Below, piece after piece: positions 26,298 through 53,152 of a stretch of DNA of 64,000 bases. The stretch comes from a virus (taxonomy: Duplodnaviria; Caudoviricetes). Positions within the stretch are counted from its first letter, which is position 1. Each line of letters starts with the position of its first letter. Below the pieces are notes generated by a model that was not told where the DNA came from, ran no database searches, and saw only the letters and a program-made list of their open reading frames with translations. The position numbers were made by a program, and so were the translations under genes. The stretch lies in the IMG/VR virus record IMGVR_UViG_3300020112_000942, positions 52,949 through 116,948 of that record, one strand, 5' to 3'.

Positions 26298-28778
<2,481 letters not shown>

Positions 28779-29789: not shown

Positions 29790-32700
29790 ATGGCAGATGA
29801 GCAGATTAAGTCAAGTCCTGCTGACCACTATTTTGAACCGGATGGTTTAAACGCCAATGCAGAGAATATTAGTCATGTGTTAAATGATTTGACAGATATT
29901 GTGGCAGATGGCACTCCAGAAGAGGGTGTTGATACTGTTAAATGGAATGGCGAAAAATTTATTCTTGGAGAAGGCGGCGGAGACATTGATGCAGATGAAA
30001 AACAAGCCTTGATGGGCGATGGAGAAGGTGGTGCGAGAGGAGCGTCAGCCGGCAAAGCATCCTATATGAAAACAGGTAGACCAGATTCGAGTTTAGGTTA
30101 TCCTGGTTTTTATTATAACGGAATTAATTTTGGATATTAGCTTGCTATTCCAGGTACTACTGACGGTGCCACAACTCAAAAGTTAACTTCTAACCCTTTG
30201 CTTAAAATGCAAGACGACGGAAAAACTGAAATACCACACCATCAGTTGACACTTGGAGATGCTGCAAATGTCGATTTCAGTGGTAATTCTTTGGTTGGCA
30301 TTAGTGGTCAAGACGTTCGTTTTACAATGCATGATAATGCAAAAATGGATTTAACTGGTGGAGTAAATAGACCAAATGCTGGCCCCGAAGTAATTGCACA
30401 CGGAAATGCAAAAATCTATATTCAAGACGGATTTTATTATTATGATAGTAAAAATAAAACAATTCCAGAAAATTATATAGAAATAGGGGGAAGTCAATTA
30501 ATTTTTACTATTACAAGAAGATGTACGAGTGCACAAAAAGCAATATATGAAGACCAAAGTATATGGAGTCAGCCTGGTGCTATTAATGAATTTTTTAATA
30601 TCGGAAAAGATTCACATCCATATCCATACGCATCAGAAGTAGAACTATTATCTGCTATGTATATTGATGGTACTAAAGATTATAGACAGCAATTAAAAAA
30701 ACAAGCACTTAACGTAGATAAAAATATTGTTGGACATTATACTATCGGAGACAGGCCATGGCTCATGGTCACAACCCAAAATTCCAATTTTGAATATAAT
30801 ATTGAAAACTTTTTCAATCAAACGGAAACCCTTGTGCACTATACCGGTAAAACACAAATATCATCATATAGCTCAGATTTTAAAGTAACGGTAGTTTTTG
30901 TAAATAATGCGCCAATATATTTAAAACCTAAAGATGGAAGTGTAACTTATTACCCAAATAGAGTATTCAGAAATAAATCTGAAGAATATAATAATCAACA
31001 AGGACCTCTTGTCGCCCTAAAAGACTCACCAAAGGTTGTCATTGAAGACGCAGCAGAGTTGTTTATGGGAGAAACATCAACGCTTTTGATGCAAAATAAT
31101 AGCGAGATGATAATGGATGGTCAAGGCTGTAAATTGCACGTCCATAATGATTTTATCGGTATATTGAATTATGGACAATTATTATTTAACGAACCTTCTA
31201 TTAAAGAATATGATACTAACGGAAGATTGAGTGTTCCACAATTCATAATGGATGGTGGTAGAATTCATATCAGTGATGGTAGCGATAGTCCAATAAAATA
31301 TAATATTGGAACACGTAATGATACAGATAAGCCAGCAACATTACTTGTCTATGGACACAGCCGACTTTCAACACATGATTATAGTATTATTAGTACTTAT
31401 GACTCTTCTCACTTTGAAATGTGTGGAACTTCTGATATTACAATGCATGACAATAGCAGAATTTACATGAGTGATTATGCAATGATATCAATGGATGGTA
31501 TTAAAGGACAATTGTCTCCTGCGATTTGGATGAATTAGCATCAAATTAAGATGGGTATTTTTGCAAATAATCGCTTAGGAAATTCAACTGGTAATACAGA
31601 TATGTATTATAAAAGACCTGCTCCGATGGATTAGAGCTTTATCAATGGACTAAGAAAAGGCACATCAATTACTGAAGAAGAATACAAGAAGATTTAGTCC
31701 TTCTTGAGCGATAGCGGAGGATTTGATAGTAGCCTTCCAATAAAGCAAGACAGATTTGATACAGAGGTTGAATTAAAAGCGGTATCAAATTGTTATTCAT
31801 CAATGAGTTATATAGACCCAACAGATATAGATTCCAGTATAATTCAAGAAATACCCAGTTATTATATGGAATTATATTATATTTTTAATCCATCAAAAGA
31901 TATGACTGACTATGTTAATTCATATCCAACCAATGAAAAAAATGTTTATGGTATACCATCATCTACATATGGTGCATTACCATCTGAGCAGCAATCATAT
32001 TTTAAACCAGTTTACAAAGTAAAGTATATTTCGAGTGTTAACGACATTTTAAAAAAATACAATAAACAAGATGCTATGAAACAAATGCTTATTGGAACAT
32101 CCAATCTAGAAAGCAAAAGGATACTATCCACTTTTTTGGATAATCATTATAATAAATGGAAATATTACAAAGATAACTATGGAAATAAGTTTTATGTATA
32201 TCTAATGGAGATTGGCAGTTTTGAGGCAGATGTTTATCGCAGTTAGTATCAAGGAAATATGATGTTTTATAAAAACATTACAGAAAATGGCAATGAATAT
32301 ATTTTACAATGTGATTTATCCAAACTACTAAACGCAAGAAATGATTTAATTAAACACGCTCCTTTTGCGGTATTAGAGGGAGGAACATCAATTCAAATTG
32401 GTAGCGATGGACAGGGTATTATCATGATAGAGCCAGGAACTGATGAGAAACTTGGTATTTATGTCATGAATAATTCTTTTATTCAAACAACAGGTAATTC
32501 TCATATTGAGTCACATGGTGCAGATGTTATTTTAAGAGACGTTAATAATAAAGCTCCATGGTTAGATTAGTATGACCAAGGATGGCTTGGAGAACATTGG
32601 CGAAGAGATAAGGATGTTAAGACCAACGCTCCTCAATTATAGTTTTATGATAATTGTAAGATAAGAATGAGGGGTGTTTGGGAAGAAGAATATCCAGAAA

Positions 32701-33131
32701 GTCTACCAGCGTTTACTATAACAGAAGACACAGGACTCTCTTTAAATACACCTACGGCATATGTTAATCTTACAGATGAACAACAAAAGATATTTACAGA
32801 TGTAATTGAATCAGAAAAATCAGAACAAATAAAACAAGGTAGAAGATTTAATATAAAAAGTGTTAATAGGATTAGACAAAATTCTTATATTATTTAGATT
32901 ACCGAAAGCACCCCAGAAGATTTTAATATGCATTTAACAAAAAATGAAAATCAACCATTGGTAGAAATCATTGAAAATGCAGAAATTCGTCAGCACGGTG
33001 ATACAAAATTCATTCTTGTTGAAAAAGAGACAGAAATTGATGAAGTAACTTATAAAGCAGGTCTTACTATTAAGATTGGTGATGAGCAAGTAACATTAAC
33101 AATGGCAAAGTTAAAAGAATTATTTGAATAA
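29790..33131 (+). CDS. Large putative structural/tail protein, 1113 aa, 8 in-frame TAG
   Basis: Six track ORFs share one frame. The only interruptions are TAGs (30138, 31536, 31632, 31695, 32244, 32568, 32640, 32895); ends TAA. Confidence 0.85.
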
Positions 33132-33149: not shown

Positions 33150-34253
33150 ATGGAAGGATTCTATGGCGGCAGTGATGGTGGAGGATTCTTCCCTTCCCAC
33201 TTCGCTCCATCTTCCACAATCGGATACACAGATGGCGTACCATTTTTTTGGGCGGGAAAGGAGGAAATTAAAATGACAGAGGATAAGAAGATTTGTGGCT
33301 ATAACTATGGCTATATGGCAAATCGTAGTGAGTATCGAAACCCAAAAGCAATTCAATCTCAAAACAAACTTTTTGCTCTTGGTTTAAACTGGGTATGTCT
33401 ACCTGTTGTAAACTATCAAGACAAATACTATTCAACAAATATCTATGCAGACCACTTGGCAACCCCAACAGACAGAGATGTGGCGGCATTTATTGAATCA
33501 GCCCATAGTCGTGGTGTGCATGTTTGTTTGAAACCTTTACTTGAAAGTAAAGACCATATGTGGAGAGCACACATCGGTTTCCCAGATTTGAATATGCAGG
33601 ATATGGATATGTACTGGGAAAAGTGGTTTATTAGTTATAAGAACTTTATTCTTCACTATGCAGAACTTGCACAGGAACTTAAAGTTGAAATGCTTTGTAT
33701 CGGCTGTGAAATGCTTGGTACTGAGCATAGAAAGTATGACTGGTTATTCCTTATTGGAGAAATCCGTAAGGTGTATAAAGGTAAACTCGTCTACAACACA
33801 AACCACGACCATGAGGATGATCAAGAGTGGTTTGACGTACTTGACTACATCGGAACTTCTGCTTATTATCCAGTCGGCGGCACAGACAGAACTTATGAGA
33901 CAATGGTTAAGAATTGGACAGAAGTAAAGTATCGTCTCGATGCTATTGCAAAGGATAGAGGAAAGAAATTCATCTTTATGGAAATCGGCTGCCGCTCTGT
34001 TGAAGGTGCGACAGAACATCCTTGGGACTTCACAGAAGAGTTGCCTTGGAGTGAAGAGGAACAAGCAAACTTCTATAAGTCTTGTTTTGAAGTATTTATG
34101 GATGACCCATATTTCGCCGGCGTATTCTGGTGGGATTGGCCTACATTTATTTACAATACTCGTGAAGAAGCAGAACAGAACAAGGACTTTGCAATTCATT
34201 TAAAGAAAGCAGAGGAAGTTGTTAAAGAGTATTACTCAAAGTATAGCAACTAA
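33150..34253 (+). CDS. Glycoside hydrolase family 113 (beta-mannanase-like / GTA TIM-barrel)
   Basis: VCLKP..WRAHI, LCIGCEM (acid/base Glu), FMEIGCRS (nucleophile Glu), GVFWWDW; alternative start at ATG 33273. Confidence 0.82.
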   Translation: MEGFYGGSDGGGFFPSHFAPSSTIGYTDGVPFFWAGKEEIKMTEDKKICGYNYGYMANRSEYRNPKAIQSQNKLFALGLNWVCLPVVNYQDKYYSTNIYADHLATPTDRDVAAFIESAHSRGVHVCLKPLLESKDHMWRAHIGFPDLNMQDMDMYWEKWFISYKNFILHYAELAQELKVEMLCIGCEMLGTEHRKYDWLFLIGEIRKVYKGKLVYNTNHDHEDDQEWFDVLDYIGTSAYYPVGGTDRTYETMVKNWTEVKYRLDAIAKDRGKKFIFMEIGCRSVEGATEHPWDFTEELPWSEEEQANFYKSCFEVFMDDPYFAGVFWWDWPTFIYNTREEAEQNKDFAIHLKKAEEVVKEYYSKYSN

Positions 34254-35621: not shown

Positions 35622-35658
35622 CGCCGCCATTCGATTGACGGGTGGCGGCACATTTTTT
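35622..35658 (+). terminator. Intrinsic terminator after the endolysin
   Basis: CGCCGCCA.../...GGTGGCGG stem followed by TTTTTT. Confidence 0.6.
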
Positions 35659-35673
35659 AAGTGAGGTGATAAT

Positions 35674-35979
35674 ATGGAAGTATTGTTACAACTTGTTGGA
35701 GCTTCTCCACTTGGTATCATTGTGGTTATGGCAGTGATTGTTTCAGTAATTACTCAGGTGTTGAAGAATATCCTACCAGAGAAACTTCGTACAAGAGTGC
35801 TTGTATTGTTTGTTTCTATCTTTGTTGTATTTGGATATTCATTTGCTACACTACCAATAACAGCTATGATGATTTTCAATAGTATTTGCTCCTCATTCAT
35901 AGTTGCTTTCATCTCTATGTTCGGATTTGATTCATTGAAGGACGTTATTAAGAGATGCGGAGGTGGAAAGAGTGAGTAA
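35674..35979 (+). CDS. Holin
   Basis: Three hydrophobic segments, VITQVLK, MFGFDSLK; adjacent to the endolysin. Confidence 0.75.
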   Translation: MEVLLQLVGASPLGIIVVMAVIVSVITQVLKNILPEKLRTRVLVLFVSIFVVFGYSFATLPITAMMIFNSICSSFIVAFISMFGFDSLKDVIKRCGGGKSE

Positions 35980-38962
35980 TGAAGAATACAAAAAGATTTT
36001 CTATGATGTAATTAGAGATATAATAACTGGAGATAACGGCACTTTGGCAAATTGTTTTGATGGTACTACGCTGGGTATCCTTGCAAAAAACAAAGATTTA
36101 ATGTGGCAAGTCTTTACTGAATTTATGTCAGATGAAGGAGACGAAACAAATTGTTTGGGACACTACGGAATTAGAGATAAAGATTTTAATGGTAAAGAAA
36201 CTGTAGCTAAATATATCGGAGATAGAATTAGTCTTGAAGGTATGAGTAAAGCAATTGATAAATATGAGAAACATTGGAATGAATCTTTTGCTTCTTTAGT
36301 GTCTTTATATAAAGATTTATATTTAAGCGATGGTGCCGCATAGATAGGAGATTCTGCATTTACCATAAAAGATGTTCTTAATTCCGATGCCGGATATTCT
36401 TTTTCTTCTGAAACAGAATGGACAAGACCAAATAAAAATATCAGTGGTCAAACATATTCACAGGTTCGTGCAAACGATAAGATAAAAAGAATATTAAATA
36501 ATAAAGCATTTATGCAATTTACACAAGGATAGAATATCAATGATGAAGTTGAACTTGGCAAGATAAAAGAACGACTTTGTCGTCTATTGATGCCAGAATA
36601 TCAAAGAACAGTTCAAATTGAAGACCTTGATAGAAACTTCTGGGTTATTGGCGGCATAATTGCAGGAATATGTGAATTCTTATTCGATGCAAATTCACCA
36701 TTAAATAAAATTTTTGATGGATTATTAGATGAAATAACCCAAATTTGGGAGAATTTATTCTATCTTTGGATGGGAGCAATAGTTTTAACTTGGAAGACTA
36801 ATTCAAGAGAACAGGGCTTGTTTGTTCCACTAAACAATGATGTTTTAAGACCATATAAAAAATTTGATAATTTCAATGATACTGATATAAGTAAGATGCT
36901 TTCTGATAATGAGTTGATATCATACGATGATACAGTGAATGTTTTAAAACGCTGTCATGAAAGATTATCTTACTTTGAAGATGTTTATAACGACAGCTCT
37001 CTTGCGATTATACCAGAAATTCGTTTGGGAAACTATCAGACAAATTATTATTCAAAAGCATATTACCCTGGAATTATAGTTGTATTAAGACAAACAAATA
37101 TTGCATCTGAATAGGACTACTATTCTACTTTTGAAGATTTATATAAGGCGGCAACATCAAGAGTTGATTATTATTATATACCATTTTCAGTTAGTGATAC
37201 GGCGGCCAAAGAAAATAAAGTTAGCCCAGTATTTGTTGATATGTGTTCAGAAAATAAATATGTAAGGATAGGTAAACATACCTCATCAAGATTTTGTGGT
37301 GTATATGAATTAGATAATAATTATTATTTATCTTGCCCATATAATAAATCAACAAGTGGTAAAGTAGCAAATGGATGTTATGTTGCTGGAGTCCGTACGG
37401 ATATTGAAAAGTTTAGTTTTAAAACATCAACCGCATTTGATAATAGATTTTCATTTGACTTGAAAATTAATTTTTATGATGTTGGTAGCGTATTGACAGA
37501 TAGTCATGCTGATGTAGTAACCAGCGTAGAAGGGGCATGGCATCAGTATAATGGTCAGATATTTGTTTTAGAATAGGAACAAATGAAACCCCATGTAGCC
37601 ACTGACACATTAGTAAAAATAACACGAGGAAATTATAGAGGCGAATATGCTTCATGGCAGTACATTGAAGAACCAGTTTTTGATATTACTATTAAAAAGA
37701 TATGGGCTGATGTTAATCCAGATGTTATGACGGATAAAGATAAGAAAATAACAATTTAGCTCATGGGGTCAAACGGTGTATCACAGGAACAAACTGTAGA
37801 ATATAAAAATAAAAATAGTGAAACTCTTTATTTCCAAAATCTTCGTGCATATACAGACAACGGTGAAGTCATTAAATATACGGTAAAAGAAACCGATACC
37901 ATTGGAACTGATTGGGTTGATACCTATGAAAACAGAGTAATCTCCTATGAATCTGCGGATAAAACAGCAAAAATTACAAATACATGGACAAAAATTAATT
38001 ATAATAGTGAAGTTGAAATAATAAACATGACGGATACATCTGCAAGTATTGATGCATTTGTTGCAAAAATTAATAGCGACGATGGGACTGGTTATAAACA
38101 TATTTGGAGAGACAAAGTTAAGACTGCCGCATCAAAATTATCAGATAATAGTGCAAAAGTATATTTTTCACATTTTAATCATCTTGATAATCTAAATCGT
38201 TCTATTTTTGAATGTACGCCATATGTTTCCTTAGCTATAAAATTAAAAAATAAAAACATTCGCTATTATCATTATGATGTAAAAGTGAGTGAAGGAGATA
38301 GTATTCACGGTAAGAGCGGTAATTTGGCGGCAATTCCATTTCCTTATATTAGTTCCGTGTTAGCTCGAAGCACGGATATAAGAGCTACTTATGATATGAA
38401 GTCTGCACAGCGTTCTACACTAAAACTTGCTCCTTATGACCCACGTGATAATTTTGATAAAAACCCAGCGATTCCACCGGCTACTTATGACGATGCCAAA
38501 AAGAAATATTATGTAGGCCCATTAGTTAATAATCCGGACTCTTGGAACCCTAACGCATACCCACTTGGCAATATAGTTGTTCGACCAAATAAATTAGATT
38601 TTACTGGTGGCACACCATATTTATATAACTTTATTATTTATGCGATAGACAGGGCATGTGCAGGAATTTCTATAAATGAATCTCCAGAGCGTTTGTTCCC
38701 TTATTATTATAAATGTGAAATAAAAACAGGCGGTGAGGCTACTGAAAATAAATTTGGAACAATAACAGCTACATATCAAGAGTTTAATAAAGAGGGAAAT
38801 AAGATATACTGGGCAGACAACAGGAAGGAGACATATTTGGTCGACTCAAAAGATGGAGCAATTCCTCTAATTTCTACTAATGCATATACAAAATTTGAGA
38901 ATGGAGATAAAGTTCGTGATTTTTGTGCATTAAGCCATATAATGATAAAGGAGGGAGAATGA
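35972..38962 (+). CDS. Paralog A of a tandem giant-protein family, about 996 aa, with an internal CnaB-type domain; 5 in-frame TAG
   Basis: Four track ORFs in one frame; TAG 36341, 36530, 37112, 37574, 37757; ends TGA; motif RLLMP...IEDLDRNFWVI. Confidence 0.85.
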
Positions 38963-38963
38963 T

Positions 38964-41900
38964 ATGGATAAAGACAATGAAATTCTTACTTCTGCTGTTA
39001 ATGAAAAAGCCGCTGAAGACAGTGGCCTTCAACGAGATGACATTGTTTATTTAAGCAAAGGATATGTTCTCAGTCATCAAGATGAGTTTAATGATTTTAA
39101 TAATGATTTACTAAAACTTATCCACGAACAAAACGAACCCTATAAGGCTGAAGAGCTTAGTGCCCAAGATAGAATAGCTGGATTTTTAAGCAAAACTATT
39201 GATTGGGAAACACTTGAAAATGCTACTTCTGGTGAAGACGTATTCTTTGATGGAGAAAAAGGTTTATATACATCAATGAAAGAATCTTTCCGTGACCTTT
39301 ATAGCGGCGCAAATAATGATTATAAGGCTTTTGATACAATGCCATATAATTGGGATGATGCGTATTGGAATAAAGCAATCTCAAAAATGATTCAAGACTT
39401 TTACCAAAAGATAGATATTGCTTAGGTGAAGGACTATGAAAAGTCAGGACTATTAATTGAGAACATTGATGAGGATGGTACGATTGATGTTGACCATCTT
39501 AGAGCATCAATAAAAACTTCTACTGGTATTGCATCATTAAGAATTATTGATATTTTTGATGCAGATGCAGGTAATAGTTTTGAAAGTGAGAATTATCTTT
39601 ATGAATACAATCCTTTTTATGAAAACGTAACATTTTCAATAGAAGGATAGCAGAAAGAAGATAAGGGGAAACAAAAAACATATACAATTAAAAATGGTTT
39701 ATTCACATAGGCTGCATCAAAAGTGTTATCATTAATTGACAACGGAGAACTAATCAAGGGTTTAGAGATTAAGAGAATTACAAGTTTACATGCAACACAA
39801 GAAGATAATTATTTAATTGGTGGAGGAGTAAGCAGCGAAGGAGACTTGGATATTGAAGATGATGTAAGCTACTATGTTTCTATTGAAAAAGATAGTAGCC
39901 AGCGTAAAATATTTAAAGTCGTTACCAATCCATGGGTTATACCTTGGTATAATGTTGATGCAGACACATATCGAAAAGTGAGAGGAGAAGACCTCGCTGT
40001 TAGTGCCGCCACAAATGATAAACAAATTGACTTCACAAAAGATGCAGATACAAAATGGATAAGACTATTAATGCCACGCAATAAACGCAAGGTTGAAGTA
40101 GAAGATTTGAATAGAAATTTTTGGGTAATTGGTCAATGTTTAAGTGGAATAACATCATATCTATTTGACCGAGAAAGTCCTCTTTCTCAGTTTATAAAAA
40201 GTGCTCTTGATGAGCTTGCAAAACTATGGGAAAATATATTATTCCTTTGGGCGGCGAATATGATATTATCACAAGATAAAACATATAATTATATACACAA
40301 AGAAATTATTATGTTGTCTCCTACTGATTACGGTTTTGATATGAAATATGATAATATTCAATCAATAGTTGCGTATAATTATTCCGAGATTTGGGATATA
40401 GATGATTCTAATCAAATCTGGAATGATTTTGTTGCTCAAATCAGTCAGCGTCTTGATTTTATGATAAATAAATATGCTGATAGTAGTTTGCTTATAGTGC
40501 CATGCATTAGAGGTAAAAACTATTAGAATAATTATTATGGAGAGCTTTGTATTCCAGGCGTATGGCATTATGATAAGAATGAAAAAAATCCACAATGGAA
40601 AGTGTATCCACTTGTCACTCAAAATGGTGGAGTATTTACTATTTCTGCGGAACAGTATATGGATAGAACTTATGGAATAAACGAACAAGAAGAGAACTAT
40701 AAATATATCTATCCGCTTTCAAATGCAGAAAGCGTAGGTTCATTAATTGATTCACGCTTCTATTGTCTTATTAGAGATAATATTTCTCTGACTTGGACTG
40801 ACGCAGAAAAAGAAATAAATATTTCTCTGCATGATGAAGGATATAGTCTTGTTAATGGAAAATAGGCAAGAAAAATTGATGAGATTAAATTTAAGTATAA
40901 TGACGCCGATAAAACATTTGAGTATGTCAATTCAAATTTTTCTTTCGATGACTCCACTCCAAAAAATGGTGCGGTACCTATAAAGAGTGGATTTTATCAG
41001 GGAGAGCTATTAAGCGATTACAAGAATGTATCAAGGGTACATTATAATATGCATATTCTCAGGACTGCTCCATTACATCCAACAGAATTGTCGGCGTCTG
41101 AGTATAAAGAGAAATATGTAACCCCAGAATATGCTACAGTTAGACAGCAGGACAAGGATATACTTAGTAAAATTATTGAGACATATCTTGAATACAATCG
41201 TACTGATAATTTCTGGGATGGAAGAGAACAATATTTTAATGAAGAGAGTTCAGCTTTTGGTGCTTCATATACTCATGATAACGGACGTATTAATGATGAA
41301 TGGAAATAGGGTCTTAGAAAAGATACACCTGTTAATGCTCAAGCTGGAGCGGCATTATCTTTTCCAACTATTGATGATTGGAAAAATAAAACCATAGAAT
41401 ATTACAATACTGTTAATAAAGATGGTCCACTAAATGAAGCTACATTAATTTTTATTGAAGGCACAAGGACATGTGCTTATTCATCATCACAAAGTGTTGA
41501 CAGACAAGGTACTGTTTATTATTTTCCATATTAGGAATCAAAAGATGATTCAAACGAAATGTCTTTGCCATTCCCTGTATCGGATACGACTTCGATTGAA
41601 CATACAAGTACCGGAGCAGTATTATCTGTTCCAAAGAAAAATGGTTCAAGAGTCTATTCATATTATGATAAACATGTTGATATAAATAAAGCAGACCCAT
41701 ATTATAATGATAAGTATGCAGCAGCATGCGTAATTAGTAGAACTGATGATGGCCTACATTATAAAGTTGCAAATGGAGTTGAAAAAAATCCACCGCTTGT
41801 AACAGATTTAGATACAATAAAGAATTTTAAAGTTAATGAACTCGTTACTTAGGGTAATCGTGGAGGACTTGGCTCAACACAATGGCTTGTTATGTTAAAA

Positions 41901-42761
41901 AATGGCGAAGACGAATTAACTGATGATAACTGGCGAATTGTAAAAGTTGATTATTCTTATCTTAGCGGAATGCATTTTACCAAGAGCGAGGATAGTTATG
42001 AACCAAATGGTAACTGGCAAGAAACAATGGGATATCACGCATACGCTCCGGTGGATCAAAGTGGCGTAGATGCATAGTTAGCTCGACTATATGGACATAA
42101 TTTAATAAAAGATTCACAAGATTTAACTTATGGTGAAATAGCAGAAAAGATAGCGGAAAAAATAACAGGATATGACGAAAACTGGTACTTACAGCAAGCT
42201 ATAAGGGCACAGAGTAATAGCTGTTGTGATTCTTGGTTCACAGAACAAAATAAATTATATAGCAATCTAAGTGCAAAATGGAAAGAGAAAGTTGAAACAG
42301 CAGTAGTTTCAGACTGGAATTAGCAGATATATGAAAACAGCGGAACTGGTAGCCATGGTCTTGAAGATACAGAAGGTAATTCTTTTACGGGTCGTGTATA
42401 TCTAAATTGGCTAACTATTACAATAGTAAGAGTATATGTATTTGGACCAAATGGTTTATATGCAAGAGGTTGTTATTTAAGAGGTTTCGATACGGAGACA
42501 CGAGATTTGTATTTTGATGGCTTTTCTGATGACAATGTTGGCGGAGTAACTGTTGATTCAACAAGAGAAGGATATTATGTAATATCAAATTCAATGCCAA
42601 ATTATAACTATGAAAAGTATAAAGTAAAAGGATGGCATAATGGAACTGCGGCATACTTTGATGAATTTATCAAGCATAGTGACAAACAATTTGATAAATA
42701 TAATGTTACTTGGGACCCAGAGTTAATAAAATGGGAAGACCCAGCTGAAAAGGAGGTGTAA
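38964..42761 (+). CDS. Paralog B, 1265 aa, 10 in-frame TAG
   Basis: Eight track ORFs in one frame; TAG 39423, 39648, 39708, 40524, 40863, 41307, 41532, 41850, 42075, 42321; ends TAA; RLLMP...VEDLNRNFWVI. Confidence 0.85.
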
Positions 42762-42764
42762 TGA

Positions 42765-45743
42765 ATGAGCTTACAAGAGGCTTTACAAAAACTTGTTGAC
42801 GATTATAAATTTGATGCAAGTACAGAGTATAAATTTTGGAAGACATTCCTTGATTTCTTTAACGAAATAAAAGCACCATTTTCTTTTAGTAGTGATGACA
42901 AAGAACTGGATGTAGTATTAAACTACATCCAGGAGCTTTGCGACATTAAGGATGAGGATTTTAAGTCTTAGCTTTATACTGCACTAAAGGATATGACTGA
43001 AGCTCCTCTCACTGATGAAACAATTTATTGGAATTAGTCTTTATAGGATTTAATTCTTTTTTTCAAAGAGAAAATGGAGGCTGTTGGTGAAGATACTGTT
43101 TTACTCCCAATTAACGGCGAATAGAATATAACCGTTCTTGACCTTAAAAATGCAAATGCTGGAAATAGTTTTTAGGGACATAGTCAGTATGTAACTCCAT
43201 GGATAAACCAAAATGAAAAAAGCTATGATGATGTAAGGAAAAAAGATGCCGTATTAACATCTCTTACTAAAGAAAACAAAACTTAGTTTACCTTATAGCA
43301 TCAAAGCATAGAGGCGGCCGCAAAATGGATTCGTTTACTAATGCCTCAATATGCAAAGACAGTTGAGATTGAAGATTTGGATAGAAATTTTTGGGTAATA
43401 TCACAATCAATATCTGCAATAAGTAATTATTTATTCGATGATGATGCGGCATTACCAAAGTTTTTAAAAGGAATTATCAGAGAATTGTCTGAACAATGGG
43501 AAAATTTAATGTATTTATGGATGTATACGGCGGCGAAACATCAGAAAGAGAGTGACAGTTTAAGAATTATTGTACTGCCATTAACTGGTATGCGTAATCG
43601 AATGGATAAGAGATATGATGATATAAATAAATTTTTAAGAAGTTATTTTAATCTTTCTAATCCAGATTTGGGTAGTAAATTGAATTATAAATTTGAATTT
43701 AAAAAAGATATATTTCAAGACTTCCAAGCTGAAGTCAAAGCTGAGTTAATGAATCATGTAGATGAATACTGCCAGGCAAATGTACTCTTTATCCCATATA
43801 TCCGCCTTGATAATTATAAGCATAACTATTACAAAGGTGAGTATTATCCGGGTGCATATTTGTATAAACAGTCTGCTGACGATAATGATAAGTGGAAATT
43901 TTATGAGTTTCAAGAAAGAATAGGAGAAAGTGACACTGGTATTCCGCTAATTATTTCTCCTTATTATGAATATGATAAAAGATTTTCTCAAAGAATTTAT
44001 GGAATAAATCAATTAAAGAATGGAAGATATACATGGGATTATCCATACGCAAGTACACATGAAATTATATCAGATGAAAAGATTCAATACCTTTATGGAG
44101 CATTGAGAACAACATTAACTGATAATGGCTCTACGTATGAAAAGAGGGTTTTCCATGGCAAGTTGTAGCTTCATATTGAAGATGTTGGTTCAACTCTTGT
44201 TAATGAGTGTAAAACTGACTTTGGATACTATGAATCAGACCATGATGAAGAAAAAGATATTATTTACTTTACTTTCAAAGATAATCCAGATGGCATAATA
44301 ACTCCAGACGATGATAAAAAGTATAAAATAAATCATAGAATATATACAAATTCATCTGAGTCATTCTATCTTGGTGAAGTATCATCTTCAAGACTTAAAA
44401 CAGTTTAGGAAACTACATCAGAGAATCTTTTTAGAGATGCCTCTTATGTAGTAAAAATAGGTAACTTTTTACCAAAGTCTGCAAATAATAACCCATCCAG
44501 ATTTAAGATGTCATCCGTTGTATACAATGAAAAGACAGGGGCTAGGTCATACACCTCTATGGCAGGTAATGTAACAACAACAGGAACAAACATACAGGCT
44601 CAAATTCCAGTATGCTATTATAGATTTCCTTGGGAACATTATGATGCAAGTAAGGATGGAGATACATCAACAACATTCACTCCAAAAACTGGAGAAATTT
44701 GCTATCGTGATGAGAATGGTTATGTATTTCCACAGATTAAAAAACTTGAATATTTATCTGAAGATAATTTAAGATACGACGGACTTGTTGCATCAAAAGC
44801 TTTAATTGCGTCTGACCCAGAAAAACAAAAACAGCCATGTTATATACTTTCAACACTTGGACTCTGTCCATGGGATAACGGTACCAATAGCAACAGTAAT
44901 GTATATTGGTCTGTTGCCGGCGTATGTCATTTATTTTTATATATTCCAAAATCAGATATATTTATTTCAAACGATAAGAAAATGTCTACTATCTGTGATA
45001 CAACAGAGTATGATATTGAGTACGATAAACACGAAGCTATTAAAGCCTCAAACTCTGATGAAACAGCCACACCTTCTGGTGTTTTACCAGATATTGATGG
45101 AACAATTTTAGACAAAGATGGAAAAGAAATTGGTAAAATAATTTTTGCTACAAAAATAGACAGATATGAAGGATATTTTTCACAGTTTGGACTTAGTGAT
45201 TCTGGTGTGTATCAATCTGGTGCATGGCGACAATTTTTTGTTTTCAACGACAGCGACAGTGGAAATGCGACAAATACTTGCGTACGTGTAGAGGCAAATG
45301 TTGGTATTGATGAGGACGATATTAGAGTAAGATATACTAATGTTAAGTTTTCTAAAGTATTTAATGGTTATGTTAAATATTATGATGCCAGATACAATCA
45401 GAATGAAGTAAAAGAAAAATTACCGAACGAAGAATCTTAGGTCTCTATAGCAAGAGTAAGAATAGATGACGGATATAGTTAGATAGAGCCTGGACAAATT
45501 GTAGCGTGCTCTCAGAAAAAAACTTTCGATAGTAGAATTGCTAATCCAAACAATCATAAATAGATATATGATATGTGTACGGGCTTTTAGTCAAAATATA
45601 ATGCTACCACTAAAGAATTGGAATATAATAGTTTTATGGATAAACCTGTGGAATAGTTTAAAGATAAAACTACGGGTCTTTTCTATGGTGCAACTGTTAA
45701 CTCTAATCAGTATCTTAGCGTTTATGTAGAACCAAGCAATTAA
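42765..45743 (+). CDS. Paralog C, 992 aa, 14 in-frame TAG
   Basis: One frame from ATG 42765 to TAA 45741-45743, broken only by TAGs; RLLMP...IEDLDRNFWVI. Confidence 0.85.
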
Positions 45744-45747
45744 TCTA

Positions 45748-45776
45748 TTGACTTTTTCTGAAAATTATGATATACT
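45748..45776 (+). promoter_or_regulatory. SigA-type promoter
   Basis: TTGACT-17-TATACT, extended TG. Confidence 0.75.
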
Positions 45777-47518: not shown

Positions 47519-48484
47519 ATGAAAAACTTTACAAAGATTGTTTGTGGCATTATGTTAATGGGCGCATTGAGTTTTGCGGCTTACGGATGCGGGGATGTTG
47601 ATGAACTCCCTGAAGTAATCGAGACAGAGACCGTCGATGTCACAGAGAGTACATCATTCGAATCCACCACTTCAACAGTAGAAACAACAACTACTACTAC
47701 TGTTGAAACATCCACATCAGACACAACTTCAACAGAGGATACAACCACTGTTGAAACCACCACTTTTACTACAGAAGCTACTGCCCAAGCAGTTCCTTCA
47801 ACTTTCAAAGAAACAAGTAAAGATACAACTACTTGTGATTCTTATACAAAAGAGGTAGTAAACATCGTAGACGACCCTATTACCTTAGTAGCAACTACTG
47901 AGCCGGCTCCTGAGACAACAACAGTTGTTTCAGTTCCACAAAAGTCCGTTGAGGAAATTGCTAAGGAAGTTTGGCAAGGTAAATGGGGCAATGGAGCAGA
48001 CAGAAAAGCTCGTCTTATTGCGGCAGGCTATGATTACAGCGAAGTTCAGAAGGCTGTTGATGCATTAAGACCAACTCCACCAGTGTCAACTACTCCAACA
48101 ACCAATACAGATTCTACTGTTGTAGACGGCTATCCTATGAGTTATGTTAAGCAGTTCTCAAGAGGAACATATTATGCTTACGGCGGTCCTCGTAATGGCG
48201 GTTCTGGTAGAAGTTTGATTGACTGTTCTCAGGGTAGCGGTGGAATTAAGGGGTCCATTGCAAGTTCATATTTGTACAGAAACTATGGTTACAACTATAA
48301 CGGAAAGCGTACGATGGTATATCTTGAGATTAGTGGATATCCAAGCATGAGCGGCTATTACTATCTTGATGATAGCGATGCTGGTAATTCAAACGTAATC
48401 GACTTCTTCTACTTGGCAAATGGAAACTGCCAATTCCAGTACCAGGGCGTTGTAACAGTTGATTGTTGGATAGTATCATACTAA
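47519..48484 (+). CDS. Lipoprotein: Thr-rich stalk, Cpl-7 (CW_7) peptidoglycan-binding repeat, 3D-like lytic transglycosylase domain
   Basis: Signal peptide ending AAYG-C; SVEEIAKEVWQGKWGNGADRKARLIAAGYDYSEVQKAVD; C-terminal GTYY...YYLDDSD..NVIDFF. Confidence 0.78.
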   Translation: MKNFTKIVCGIMLMGALSFAAYGCGDVDELPEVIETETVDVTESTSFESTTSTVETTTTTTVETSTSDTTSTEDTTTVETTTFTTEATAQAVPSTFKETSKDTTTCDSYTKEVVNIVDDPITLVATTEPAPETTTVVSVPQKSVEEIAKEVWQGKWGNGADRKARLIAAGYDYSEVQKAVDALRPTPPVSTTPTTNTDSTVVDGYPMSYVKQFSRGTYYAYGGPRNGGSGRSLIDCSQGSGGIKGSIASSYLYRNYGYNYNGKRTMVYLEISGYPSMSGYYYLDDSDAGNSNVIDFFYLANGNCQFQYQGVVTVDCWIVSY

Positions 48485-49506: not shown

Positions 49507-50235
49507 ATGCTTAAAATTGAAAACGTAGAAGTCTTTGGATGGGAAGGCGCCATTCGAGGTATGAGAAATCCTAAGAACTCTTGGGATAGGTCTGACTCAA
49601 AAACAATTGCAACACTTGAAGATGGAAAGATGATTGTTCGTTATGAAATCGGACCGAATGATTTAAAGCTGGCTAAAGCTCTTGTAGCAGGCGGCCCTGT
49701 TCATTGTAAATTCAGACGTCAAATTATGGTAACCCTTGATATCACAGCACCGATGTTTTGGTGGAAGGAGTTTGATACCTACAAGGTAGGTACTGTAAGA
49801 GACTCTTGTTCTACTATGCATAAGATTACTTCAAAGCCTTTTGAGGTTTCCGATTTCTCTGTTGAAACTATCGAAGGATATTGTCCTCACGAGAGTGAAT
49901 TCTCATATATGAGCGGCTTGCCTTTGAACTCCAGACGAGCATTGGAATATACTATTGCGGCACTTAATAACCTCAGAGAGCTTTACCTCAAGGCAAAGGA
50001 AGCTGGAGCAGAGGAAGAGGCAAAGATTTACTGGAGAAAGATTATTGAATTACTTCCTTCTTCTTACAATCAGAAGTCAACTGTAACTCTTAATTACGAA
50101 GTTCTTGCTAATATGCGTAAATGGAGATGCGGACACAAGCTCTATGAGTGGTCAAAGACTATGTGTGGTTGGATTGATACACTCCCTTACGCAAAGGAAC
50201 TTATCATCGGTCCAGTTCTTGGCGAGGAAAACTGA
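49507..50235 (+). CDS. ThyX/Thy1-like phage protein (non-canonical motif)
   Basis: HCKFRRQIMVTLDITAPMFWWKEFDTY..G..RDSCSTMH, LPSSYNQ, HKLYEW; recognised by resemblance only. Confidence 0.55.
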   Translation: MLKIENVEVFGWEGAIRGMRNPKNSWDRSDSKTIATLEDGKMIVRYEIGPNDLKLAKALVAGGPVHCKFRRQIMVTLDITAPMFWWKEFDTYKVGTVRDSCSTMHKITSKPFEVSDFSVETIEGYCPHESEFSYMSGLPLNSRRALEYTIAALNNLRELYLKAKEAGAEEEAKIYWRKIIELLPSSYNQKSTVTLNYEVLANMRKWRCGHKLYEWSKTMCGWIDTLPYAKELIIGPVLGEEN

Positions 50236-51221
50236 TGGGAGCAGGCACAGTAGCATTAATCTGTTGTGGTTTACTTATACTGGCGGTAATTATTGCCGCC
50301 TTAGTATATGTTCGTGGTTCAGATAATTTTGAAGGATTGGATAGAGAATATCGTGCAAACCTTTAGTCTATTATCAATGAGATACAGGACAGTCATAAGA
50401 AAGAACTTGAGGTGTATCAAGCAGACCTTGACGCAAAGAAGAGAGACTGTGCTCGTCAAGAAGAGTTCTACTTGAATGAACTACAACAGAAGAAAGAATC
50501 TTATGAAGTTAAAGCAAGAGAGCTTGAAGATAAACTCATTGCTTTAACAGAACAAAAGTCCAGGGAAGAGGCTAACTCCATTGAAAGTATTGTAGCTTAC
50601 TATGCTAATGAAAGAGCAAGATTGCAAGAGGAGCAAACAACATTTGAGGAAAAGATAAAAGCCCGTATGGATGCGGCGGCGGAGAAGGTTGCAAAAGAAG
50701 AGGCTCGTGTTGCGGAAATTATTGAGCAACATAAGCGTGAAGAGAAGATAAGAAAAGAAAAAGATTTCTATCGCATTGTGCTTTCAGAGGATGCTGTTCA
50801 CGATGTTCAAAGCCTCCGTAAGATTGCAGAGCAACTCAGAAATCCTACTGTTCTTTATAAACTTATCTACAAAGAGTATTATGAAAAGCCATTCTCTGAA
50901 ATGGTCGGTAGGATTGTGCAGGGACGTGGCTCAATAGGTATCTACAAGATTACCAATACCGTTAACGGCAGGGTATATATTGGACAGACCAAGCAGGCAT
51001 TTAAGGAGCGTTGGCGTACGCACCTTAAGCGAGGCGTAAAGGCAGAGCCAGGTACCCAGAACAAACTCTACAAGGCTATGTGGGAAGAAGGTCCAGAGAA
51101 CTTTACGTTTGAAGTTCTTGCCGAATGTCTCGCCACAGAATTAAATCAAAAGGAAAGAGAATATATTTCTCTTTATCACGCCGACACTTGGGGATATAAT
51201 TCAACTGGAGGAAACAGTTAA
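50235..51221 (+). CDS. Membrane-anchored coiled-coil protein with a C-terminal GIY-YIG nuclease domain, 328 aa, one in-frame TAG
   Basis: ATG 50235 overlaps the upstream TGA; TM VALICCGLLILAVIIAALVYV; TAG 50364-50366; GIYKITN...YIGQT...ERWRTH...GYN. Confidence 0.8.
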
Positions 51222-52855: not shown

Positions 52856-53152
52856 ATGGACCGAAGTTACATCGGCAAAATCGACCTGTGGGTACTTGTG
52901 GCGGCGATTATTGGAATGTTTCTGATAGTCTTGTATGTCGTTTGGTCGAAAGATGACTGCAAAGACAAGTATCTCATACTAACGCATACGGATATTGTAG
53001 CCAACGAAACATAGGAAATTGAATATGAAATTGACTTCAAGTTTGGAAATACTTTTTTCCTTACCAACGGTAATCATATTCATATTGACGAGTATTTCAC
53101 CGACTACAAAATTGAAGAAAGAAAGAGGGAGATAAACGTTGAAGAAGGATAA
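52856..53152 (+). CDS. Single-TM hypothetical protein, 98 aa, one in-frame TAG
   Basis: RBS GAGGTGAGG; TM LWVLVAAIIGMFLIVLYVVW; TAG 53012-53014; ends TAA; not in the ORF track. Confidence 0.65.

Follow-up and report, generated by a model that had tools for sequence, protein, structure and literature searches.

We analyzed a 64,000-nt stretch of DNA, hereafter the window, which covers positions 52,949 to 116,948 of the IMG/VR record IMGVR_UViG_3300020112_000942, assigned to Caudoviricetes. Three consecutive genes in the window, denoted A, B and C, encode proteins of approximately 1000 amino acids (aa) or more that, judging from their sequences, are three anciently diverged paralogs of an uncharacterized family limited to TAG-recoded siphovirus-like phages. 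We put the probability that A, B and C form a fixed set of three late virion-borne proteins contacting the host envelope at roughly one half. Late expression, virion location and envelope binding are what we infer from several lines of evidence taken together: a role as a virion appendage is plausible given the tail-like TAG and codon usage of the three genes, the extracellular-type domains without signal peptides in the family, and the fast evolution of the proteins.

Under genetic code table 15 (TAG read as glutamine), window positions 35963-45743 contain three abutting open reading frames (ORFs) on the plus strand, of 999, 1265 and 992 aa, whereas under table 11 the A-B-C stretch breaks into at least 9 fragments. 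An earlier sequence-only reading of this DNA, which had described three abutting genes visible only with code 15, is borne out on this point, as is its statement that the 29 in-frame TAGs of the triplet amount to about half of those in the window (about 60 by a count from the ORF list). The GTG at 35972 is the likely start of A because a GGAGG lies 9 nt upstream of it, so the start chosen in that reading is preferred; this GTG overlaps the 3' end of the preceding gene, orf101. B starts 1 nt past the TGA of A and C starts 3 nt past the TAA of B, each with a strong Shine-Dalgarno site (AAGGAGGGAG and AAAGGAGGTG, respectively) located within the 3' end of the upstream gene. The genes are as follows:

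35972..38962, plus strand: paralog A (position-1 clade), 996 aa from GTG 35972, 5 in-frame TAGs
38964..42761, plus strand: paralog B (position-2 clade), 1265 aa, 10 in-frame TAGs
42765..45743, plus strand: paralog C (position-3 clade), 992 aa, 14 in-frame TAGs, stop codon TAA ending at 45743

A conserved N-terminal module of 550-730 aa is common to the three proteins and makes up over half of each. In tblastn searches, C matches A and B with E values of 3e-36 and 6e-39, and all seven motifs originally read from the sequence occur in identical order in A, B and C, with a single correction: the RLLMP motif has five residues before V, not four. The first two motifs are separated by 135 aa in B vs 23 aa in A and C, which implies an insertion of about 112 aa in B, close to the roughly 100 aa given earlier; the insertion site is a hot spot for insertions throughout the family. 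The module is followed by C-terminal halves of 405, 538 and 416 aa in A, B and C, respectively, for which hhalign comparison of the family profiles detected no kinship (probability <1%). Thus, the layout of a conserved N-terminal module with a divergent C-terminus is real, and the complete divergence past the shared core that had been noted by eye persists even when profiles are compared with profiles. The parts of the three proteins map to the window as follows:

35999..37744, plus strand: conserved N-terminal family module of A (profile A2 positions 9-526)
38964..41144, plus strand: conserved N-terminal family module of B (residues 1-727, B-type insertion included)
39582..39965, plus strand: B-specific insertion, about 112-130 aa, between the motifs DAGNSF and TY.KVR..D
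42765..44492, plus strand: conserved N-terminal family module of C (residues 1-576)
44493..45740, plus strand: C-type C-terminal region, 416 aa, mostly beta, 31-39% identity among position-3 orthologs
37685..37984, plus strand: Cna_B (adhesin stalk-type) domain of A (residues 575-674 of P0001; E 6.2e-10)

About 12 positions of the module are invariant among 44 sequences that show only 20-37% identity to C, many of them charged or aromatic (Y154, R158, D161, T176, L191, P194, E203, L205, F209, W210, V211 and D473 in the numbering of C). The structure predicted for the N-terminal 560 aa of C has a mean predicted local distance difference test score (pLDDT) of 76. An AlphaFold model of full-length C, built from 71 aligned sequences, reaches a pLDDT of 82 and a predicted template modeling score of 0.61, with most of the C-terminal half at 85-97. 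In this model, N-terminal helices are followed by a long helical hairpin (residues 202-259, with helices 202-224 and 229-259) and a beta-rich part (339-545). Each helix of the hairpin carries one of the two most conserved motifs, EDLDRNFWVI and WENL.YLW, and the motif P.IR..NY..NYY..PG opens the beta-rich domain. Beta structure, including some very long strands, makes up most of the C-terminus.

Searches for relatives of known function returned next to nothing. No PHROG family matched A, B or C at E values up to 0.01, there was no NCBIfam match, no Tal or Dit match was found among the PHROG and Pfam tail families, and the conserved core has no Pfam match, the Cna_B domain of A being the sole Pfam match among the three proteins. 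That match (PF05738) covers profile positions 1-87 of 87 and scores 39.8 bits against a gathering cut-off of 22.3. PDB sequences, searched with A, with B and with each of two family profiles, yielded nothing at E values up to 1-5, and among 50,697 GenBank phage records there was no match by tblastn of C or by megablast of the 11-kb region. Foldseek comparison of two models with the PDB and BFVD produced nothing at E <= 0.001 and hence no known fold; these searches and VIA-align, in its wide and second-look modes, returned noise-level rows only, of helical-hairpin or beta-propeller-like appearance. There was no beta-helix tailspike among the fold-search rows, for which a 992-residue query model is a weak probe of single domains, and the ESM Atlas queried with one homolog gave no usable match. 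Because the models are long and the domains were not split, the negative fold searches do not prove that the fold is new. Still, the absence of any Pfam, PHROG, NCBIfam, PDB-sequence or fold match for the core agrees with the initial impression that the family is undescribed. Neither signal peptides nor transmembrane (TM) segments were evident in A, B or C when read directly from the sequences.

Homologs in other phages carry a variety of modules, namely, Cna_B or SpaA (the latter in 1 of the 39 homologs tested), GH25 muramidase, GDPD, BspA-type leucine-rich repeats and dockerin, and M23-like segments are seen as well. One GH25-bearing member (L013) belongs to a canonical holin-linked array. 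Fusions to known virion domains were sought among longer homologs, and the only longer homolog found has no Pfam domain. One homolog of 1083 aa (P0255) contains a type I dockerin (residues 164-216) in an N-terminal extension, which hints at attachment to the cohesins of cellulosome-bearing hosts.

Searching 1.84 billion proteins with a profile of the N-terminal ~560 aa brought up 482 clusters (50% identity), of which 350 have E values below 1e-30. Many members are full length (800-1400 aa); none bears a functional name, a few are labelled 'hypothetical protein' and the rest are nameless. The expectation that databases translated with code 11 would hold the family only as fragments proved correct for IMG, where the entries are fragments (403 of 692 aa; 101 of 960 aa), but not in general: hundreds of full-length members are present in protein sets derived from ENA and Logan, so the family is hidden only where genes were called with code 11. 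Viral contigs contained 27 related loci, and species-representative genomes 13 more; the latter are mostly on contigs of phage size (150-184 kb) from the bins of Oscillospiraceae, Ruminococcus, Eubacterium and other Clostridia. Overall, the family is confined to metagenomic phage contigs of ~140-190 kb that are binned with gut or rumen Clostridia, the host assignments coming from binning alone. Distant members on standard-code phages, which have 0 TAGs, retain only the segment from WNES to WEN..YLW.

The number of copies per array varies across phages from one to three. In a maximum likelihood tree of the conserved module (quick search mode), positions 1, 2 and 3 of the triplets form three separate clades, close groups with SH-like approximate likelihood ratio test support of 99, 100 and 99, and the A-B-C order is kept in at least 11 phages. 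These position-specific clades indicate that the triplication is old. The C-termini follow the same pattern: 14 loci have the position-3 type, 11 the position-2 type and 6 the position-1 type. Replacement or loss is occasional and mostly affects position 1, where the C-terminus is at times missing or of a different type.

The sequence-only reading had envisaged swappable receptor-binding ends, and the distribution of C-termini does not support such a mode of evolution. C-terminal type is tied to array position, C-termini diverge at a rate close to that of the core (orthologous C-termini are 26-39% identical to those in the window, the cores 30-41%), and close pairs keep both parts, with core and C-terminus alike 83-98% identical (90-98% for the C-terminus). 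No pair combines C-termini at least 60% identical with cores less than 40% identical, the pattern that shuffling onto distant cores would leave, and only 4 pairs have cores at least 70% identical with unrelated C-termini. Given about 29 C-terminal clusters and the rarity of loss or replacement, the ends are modular only over a long time scale. The C-terminus is therefore mostly inherited with its paralog, evolving about as fast as the core and with no swapping between close relatives.

The array belongs to a second late region on the plus strand, which consists of a collagen-like tail fibre gene, an ORF of 232 aa, a TAG-rich gene for an 1113-aa protein, a GH113 glycoside hydrolase gene, the endolysin gene, a terminator, orf101, and A, B and C; these are followed by genes for a UvrD-like helicase and a CW_7-repeat protein. 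Three elements delimit the array:

35623..35649, plus strand: intrinsic-terminator-like hairpin (11 pairs, 8 of them GC, followed by a T run) between the endolysin gene and orf101
35674..35979, plus strand: orf101, 101 aa, holin-like, its last codons overlapping the start of A
45748..45776, plus strand: promoter-like site TTGACT-17-TATACT with TG, upstream of the UvrD-like helicase gene (ATG 45809)

The product of orf101 is holin-like because it has three hydrophobic segments and a charged KDVIKRCGGGKSE tail, and the gene directly follows the endolysin gene in the window as well as in relatives. It thus has the attributes by which holins are predicted from sequence (small size, 2-4 TM segments, a charged C-terminus and a location beside the endolysin gene), although among named families it matches phrog_18218 alone, whose function is unknown. 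The promoter-like site suggests that the A-B-C unit ends at C; together with the terminator ahead of orf101, this means that orf101-A-B-C would most simply be one transcription unit. In ~30 loci, distant ones included, the genes follow one another as endolysin, orf101 homolog, array and UvrD helicase, and the UvrD-like helicase gene adjoins the array in nearly all loci.

The window is the last 64 kb of a contig of 116,948 bases that is estimated to be 74% complete, corresponding to a genome of ~158 kb. The genes for the terminase (TerL), the portal, a 2640-aa tape measure protein, an 1132-aa protein matching Dit PHROGs and then a 2151-aa protein, with no sheath gene seen on the contig, make the phage look like a large siphovirus. 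A replication arm on the minus strand encodes RecJ, primase, DnaB, PhoH, topoisomerase II, NrdD and ligase, and a switch in GC skew suggests bidirectional replication. No tRNA gene, and hence no TAG suppressor, was detected on the 117-kb contig; given the estimated completeness, the suppressor may lie in the missing part.

The use of TAG links A, B and C to the tail genes. TAG accounts for 0.20, 0.20 and 0.32 of the glutamine codons of A, B and C, respectively, compared with 0.19 in the tape measure gene, 0.17 in the Dit gene and 0.20 in the gene for the 2151-aa protein; in A, B and C, CAA is used more often than CAG and the GC content is 32-33%, and these three tail genes show a similar picture. 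GC is higher in the replication genes and in those for the endolysin, GH113 and UvrD, each with 0-1 TAG. According to a study of recoded phages, TAG-rich genes in such phages are late structural and lysis genes (10.1101/2021.08.26.457843). A, B and C also evolve faster than their neighbours: in the same phage pairs they are 30-40% identical vs 56-77% for GH113, endolysin and UvrD.

On the reading that we favour, A, B and C would be expressed from one late transcript with the holin-like orf101, and, from the arrangement of the genes, their translation is coupled. The 29 TAGs would block their translation until TAG is read as glutamine, if the model published for recoded phages applies here (10.1101/2021.08.26.457843). 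The proteins would be made in the cytoplasm, lacking a secretion signal, and then incorporated into the virion, with the tail tip or the length of the tail as the probable site; extracellular-type modules without export signals are what virion proteins look like. The 550-730 aa N-terminal module could serve as the docking or oligomerization unit, with its most conserved motifs in a helical hairpin beside a beta-rich domain, and the three differing C-terminal halves may touch different components of a Gram-positive envelope. Because many phages retain all three paralogs in an unchanged order, the proteins would act as a fixed set and not as exchangeable cassettes; they could form three separate appendages that occupy equivalent sites, or a single hetero-oligomer. 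The latter is suggested by the ancient, order-conserved triplication, although triplication from a single-copy ancestor would fit separate appendages equally well. A more specific version, in which the conserved module is a new fold whose hairpin and beta domain co-assemble A, B and C into a hetero-oligomeric tail-tip adhesion complex with three envelope-binding heads, is a conjecture that we consider doubtful. If true, this would be a receptor-recognition apparatus unrelated to the Dit/Tal/Bpp or tailspike systems and specific to TAG-recoded large siphophages of gut Clostridia.

Several observations weigh against assigning A, B and C to the virion surface. The array lies outside the main head-tail operon, between the lysis genes and the helicase gene. 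Unlike many receptor-binding proteins, its products do not have C-termini that are hypervariable among close relatives. An active site would be an equally good explanation for the polar motif E-D-L-D/N-R-N-F-W, which is strongly invariant, and there is no sequence or fold likeness to known virion proteins in PHROGs, Pfam, NCBIfam, BFVD or PDB. Furthermore, the gene for the collagen-like tail fibre (window 26298-28778), which matches many tail-fibre PHROGs, contains no TAG, so TAG content is an imperfect marker of structural genes. Metaproteomic support was looked for in the literature, and the only code-15 proteomics paper found concerns crAss-like phages.

Given the location of the array, its products could instead be accessory proteins of lysis that degrade or bind the envelope and are released through holin lesions or at lysis, never residing in the virion. 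Co-transcription with the holin-like gene and proximity to the endolysin and GH113 genes in ~30 loci are in line with this possibility, and so are the GH25, GDPD or M23-like segments of a few homologs. We nevertheless regard it as unlikely: most members lack a recognizable enzyme domain, A, B and C included (0 of 39 and 0 of 6 in two sets tested against Pfam), three co-inherited proteins of ~1000 aa with adhesin-type domains resemble no known lysis factor, and the endolysin and GH113 genes are free of the TAGs that A, B and C contain. We give a similarly low weight to a different role within the virion, whether as a decoration of the head or tail or as internal proteins that are ejected with the DNA and act on the cell wall during penetration.

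It is also conceivable, if rather improbable, that A, B and C are late proteins without a structural role, with the module working as an enzyme or a machine in the cytoplasm (for example in assembly, DNA handling or host takeover) and the C-termini as regulatory or targeting regions. The ~12 invariant positions, many charged or aromatic, in otherwise divergent sequences are what this explanation would predict, and the neighbouring UvrD-like helicase gene could be seen in the same light; however, that gene has its own promoter-like site and almost no TAG, the extracellular-type domains of family members make little sense in the cytoplasm, and no enzyme family or fold was matched. The combination of a conserved N-terminus and varied C-termini, some of them wall hydrolases, recalls polymorphic toxins, with a trafficking domain followed by variable effectors. 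Such a system is disfavoured and would be highly improbable here, considering that spacings of 1 and 3 nt between the genes leave no room for immunity genes, that the C-termini are inherited vertically with each paralog, that the family occurs on large phage contigs only, and that no toxin domains were detected by Pfam in A, B, C and 39 homologs.

Compared with known systems, the array represents an uncharacterized family that probably does a known kind of job; at the sequence level, none of the comparisons made places it among multi-receptor-binding-protein (multi-RBP) or tail-tip systems. The tail tips of siphophages of Gram-positive bacteria include proteins with wall hydrolases or adhesion modules, such as the tail-associated lysin (Tal), evolved Dit, and the lactococcal BppU, BppA and BppL. 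A, B and C resemble these in being large modular late proteins without signal peptides, and some family members contain GH25, M23-like, GDPD, or carbohydrate/adhesin-type modules. However, the tail operon of this phage already encodes a Dit (1132 aa) and, in the Tal position, a protein of 2151 aa. A, B and C lie in a separate operon behind a holin-like gene and have no Dit or Tal match in PHROG or Pfam or among the fold matches. Residues 575-674 of A are akin to the Cna_B and SpaA stalk domains of Gram-positive adhesins (PF05738, PF17802), but this is a single 100-aa domain in one paralog, with no LPXTG or signal peptide, and the remainder is unrelated to MSCRAMM adhesins.

Like the branched Ackermannviridae tailspikes TSP1-4 (PMC11414711) and the RBPs of Klebsiella phages with dual or branched systems, A, B and C are large proteins encoded by adjacent genes, with common N-terminal assembly modules and different distal halves. 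As in multi-RBP sets, the genes stay clustered and diverge faster than those around them (PMC11414711). The differences are substantial: there is no sequence or fold similarity and no beta-helix or XD/anchor domain was detected in A, B and C; their common module is not a short anchor but exceeds half of the protein; their C-termini are not exchanged among close relatives; and their phage is siphovirus-like, with a Gram-positive host, and their virion location is putative. In its traits, as distinct from its phylogeny, the phage resembles the 'Agate' clade of Borges et al., with TAG recoding that is densest in structural and lysis modules, which are scattered along the genome, and a genome size of 154 +/- 27 kb (10.1101/2021.08.26.457843), compared with ~158 kb here and 140-190 kb in relatives. 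As far as consulted, their account of recoded phages does not describe the A-B-C protein family (10.1101/2021.08.26.457843).

Phages with this family are common in gut and rumen metagenomes and none is cultured. In each genome, the family occupies ~10 kb that evolve faster than the neighbouring genes and have no detectable relative of known structure. Should A, B and C be host-recognition proteins, they would provide handles for host prediction, for fishing out hosts with tagged binding domains and for studying the attachment of very long-tailed siphophages to Clostridia. Irrespective of function, the conserved order of the three paralogs is a clean case of a single phage protein becoming a fixed three-member set. 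In annotations of the IMG type, such genes become visible only with code-aware gene calling.

Several genes around the array deserve mention. The GH113 glycoside hydrolase (window 33150-34253; Pfam E 1e-98) is encoded just upstream of the endolysin by a gene without a TAG, and its counterparts in relatives are 58-77% identical. It may depolymerize capsule or mannan in connection with lysis or entry. The 1113-aa protein (window 29790-33131) has 8 in-frame TAGs and no PHROG, Pfam or NCBIfam match, and weak homologs occupy the matching place in relatives. It was considered as a fourth paralog and ruled out, with an hhalign probability of 0.2% against the family. Downstream of the array, the CW_7-repeat protein (window 47519-48484; Pfam E 5e-17), with weak matches to endolysin or amidase PHROGs, is a second cell-wall-binding protein and fits a Gram-positive host. 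A 328-aa protein (window 50235-51221) matches GIY-YIG homing-endonuclease PHROGs over its C-terminal ~90 aa and is duplicated in some relatives (L010, L011).

Elsewhere on the contig, the 2151-aa protein in the Tal position after Dit (G000:C1:39875-46327; L033:4875-11327) has 18 TAGs and no PHROG or NCBIfam match. Outside the window (G000:C1:15285-25623; L031/L032), five consecutive genes, for proteins of 1047, 658, 651, 747 and 309 aa that each match phrog_2729 ('virion structural protein'), constitute a second tandem set of paralogs in the same phage.

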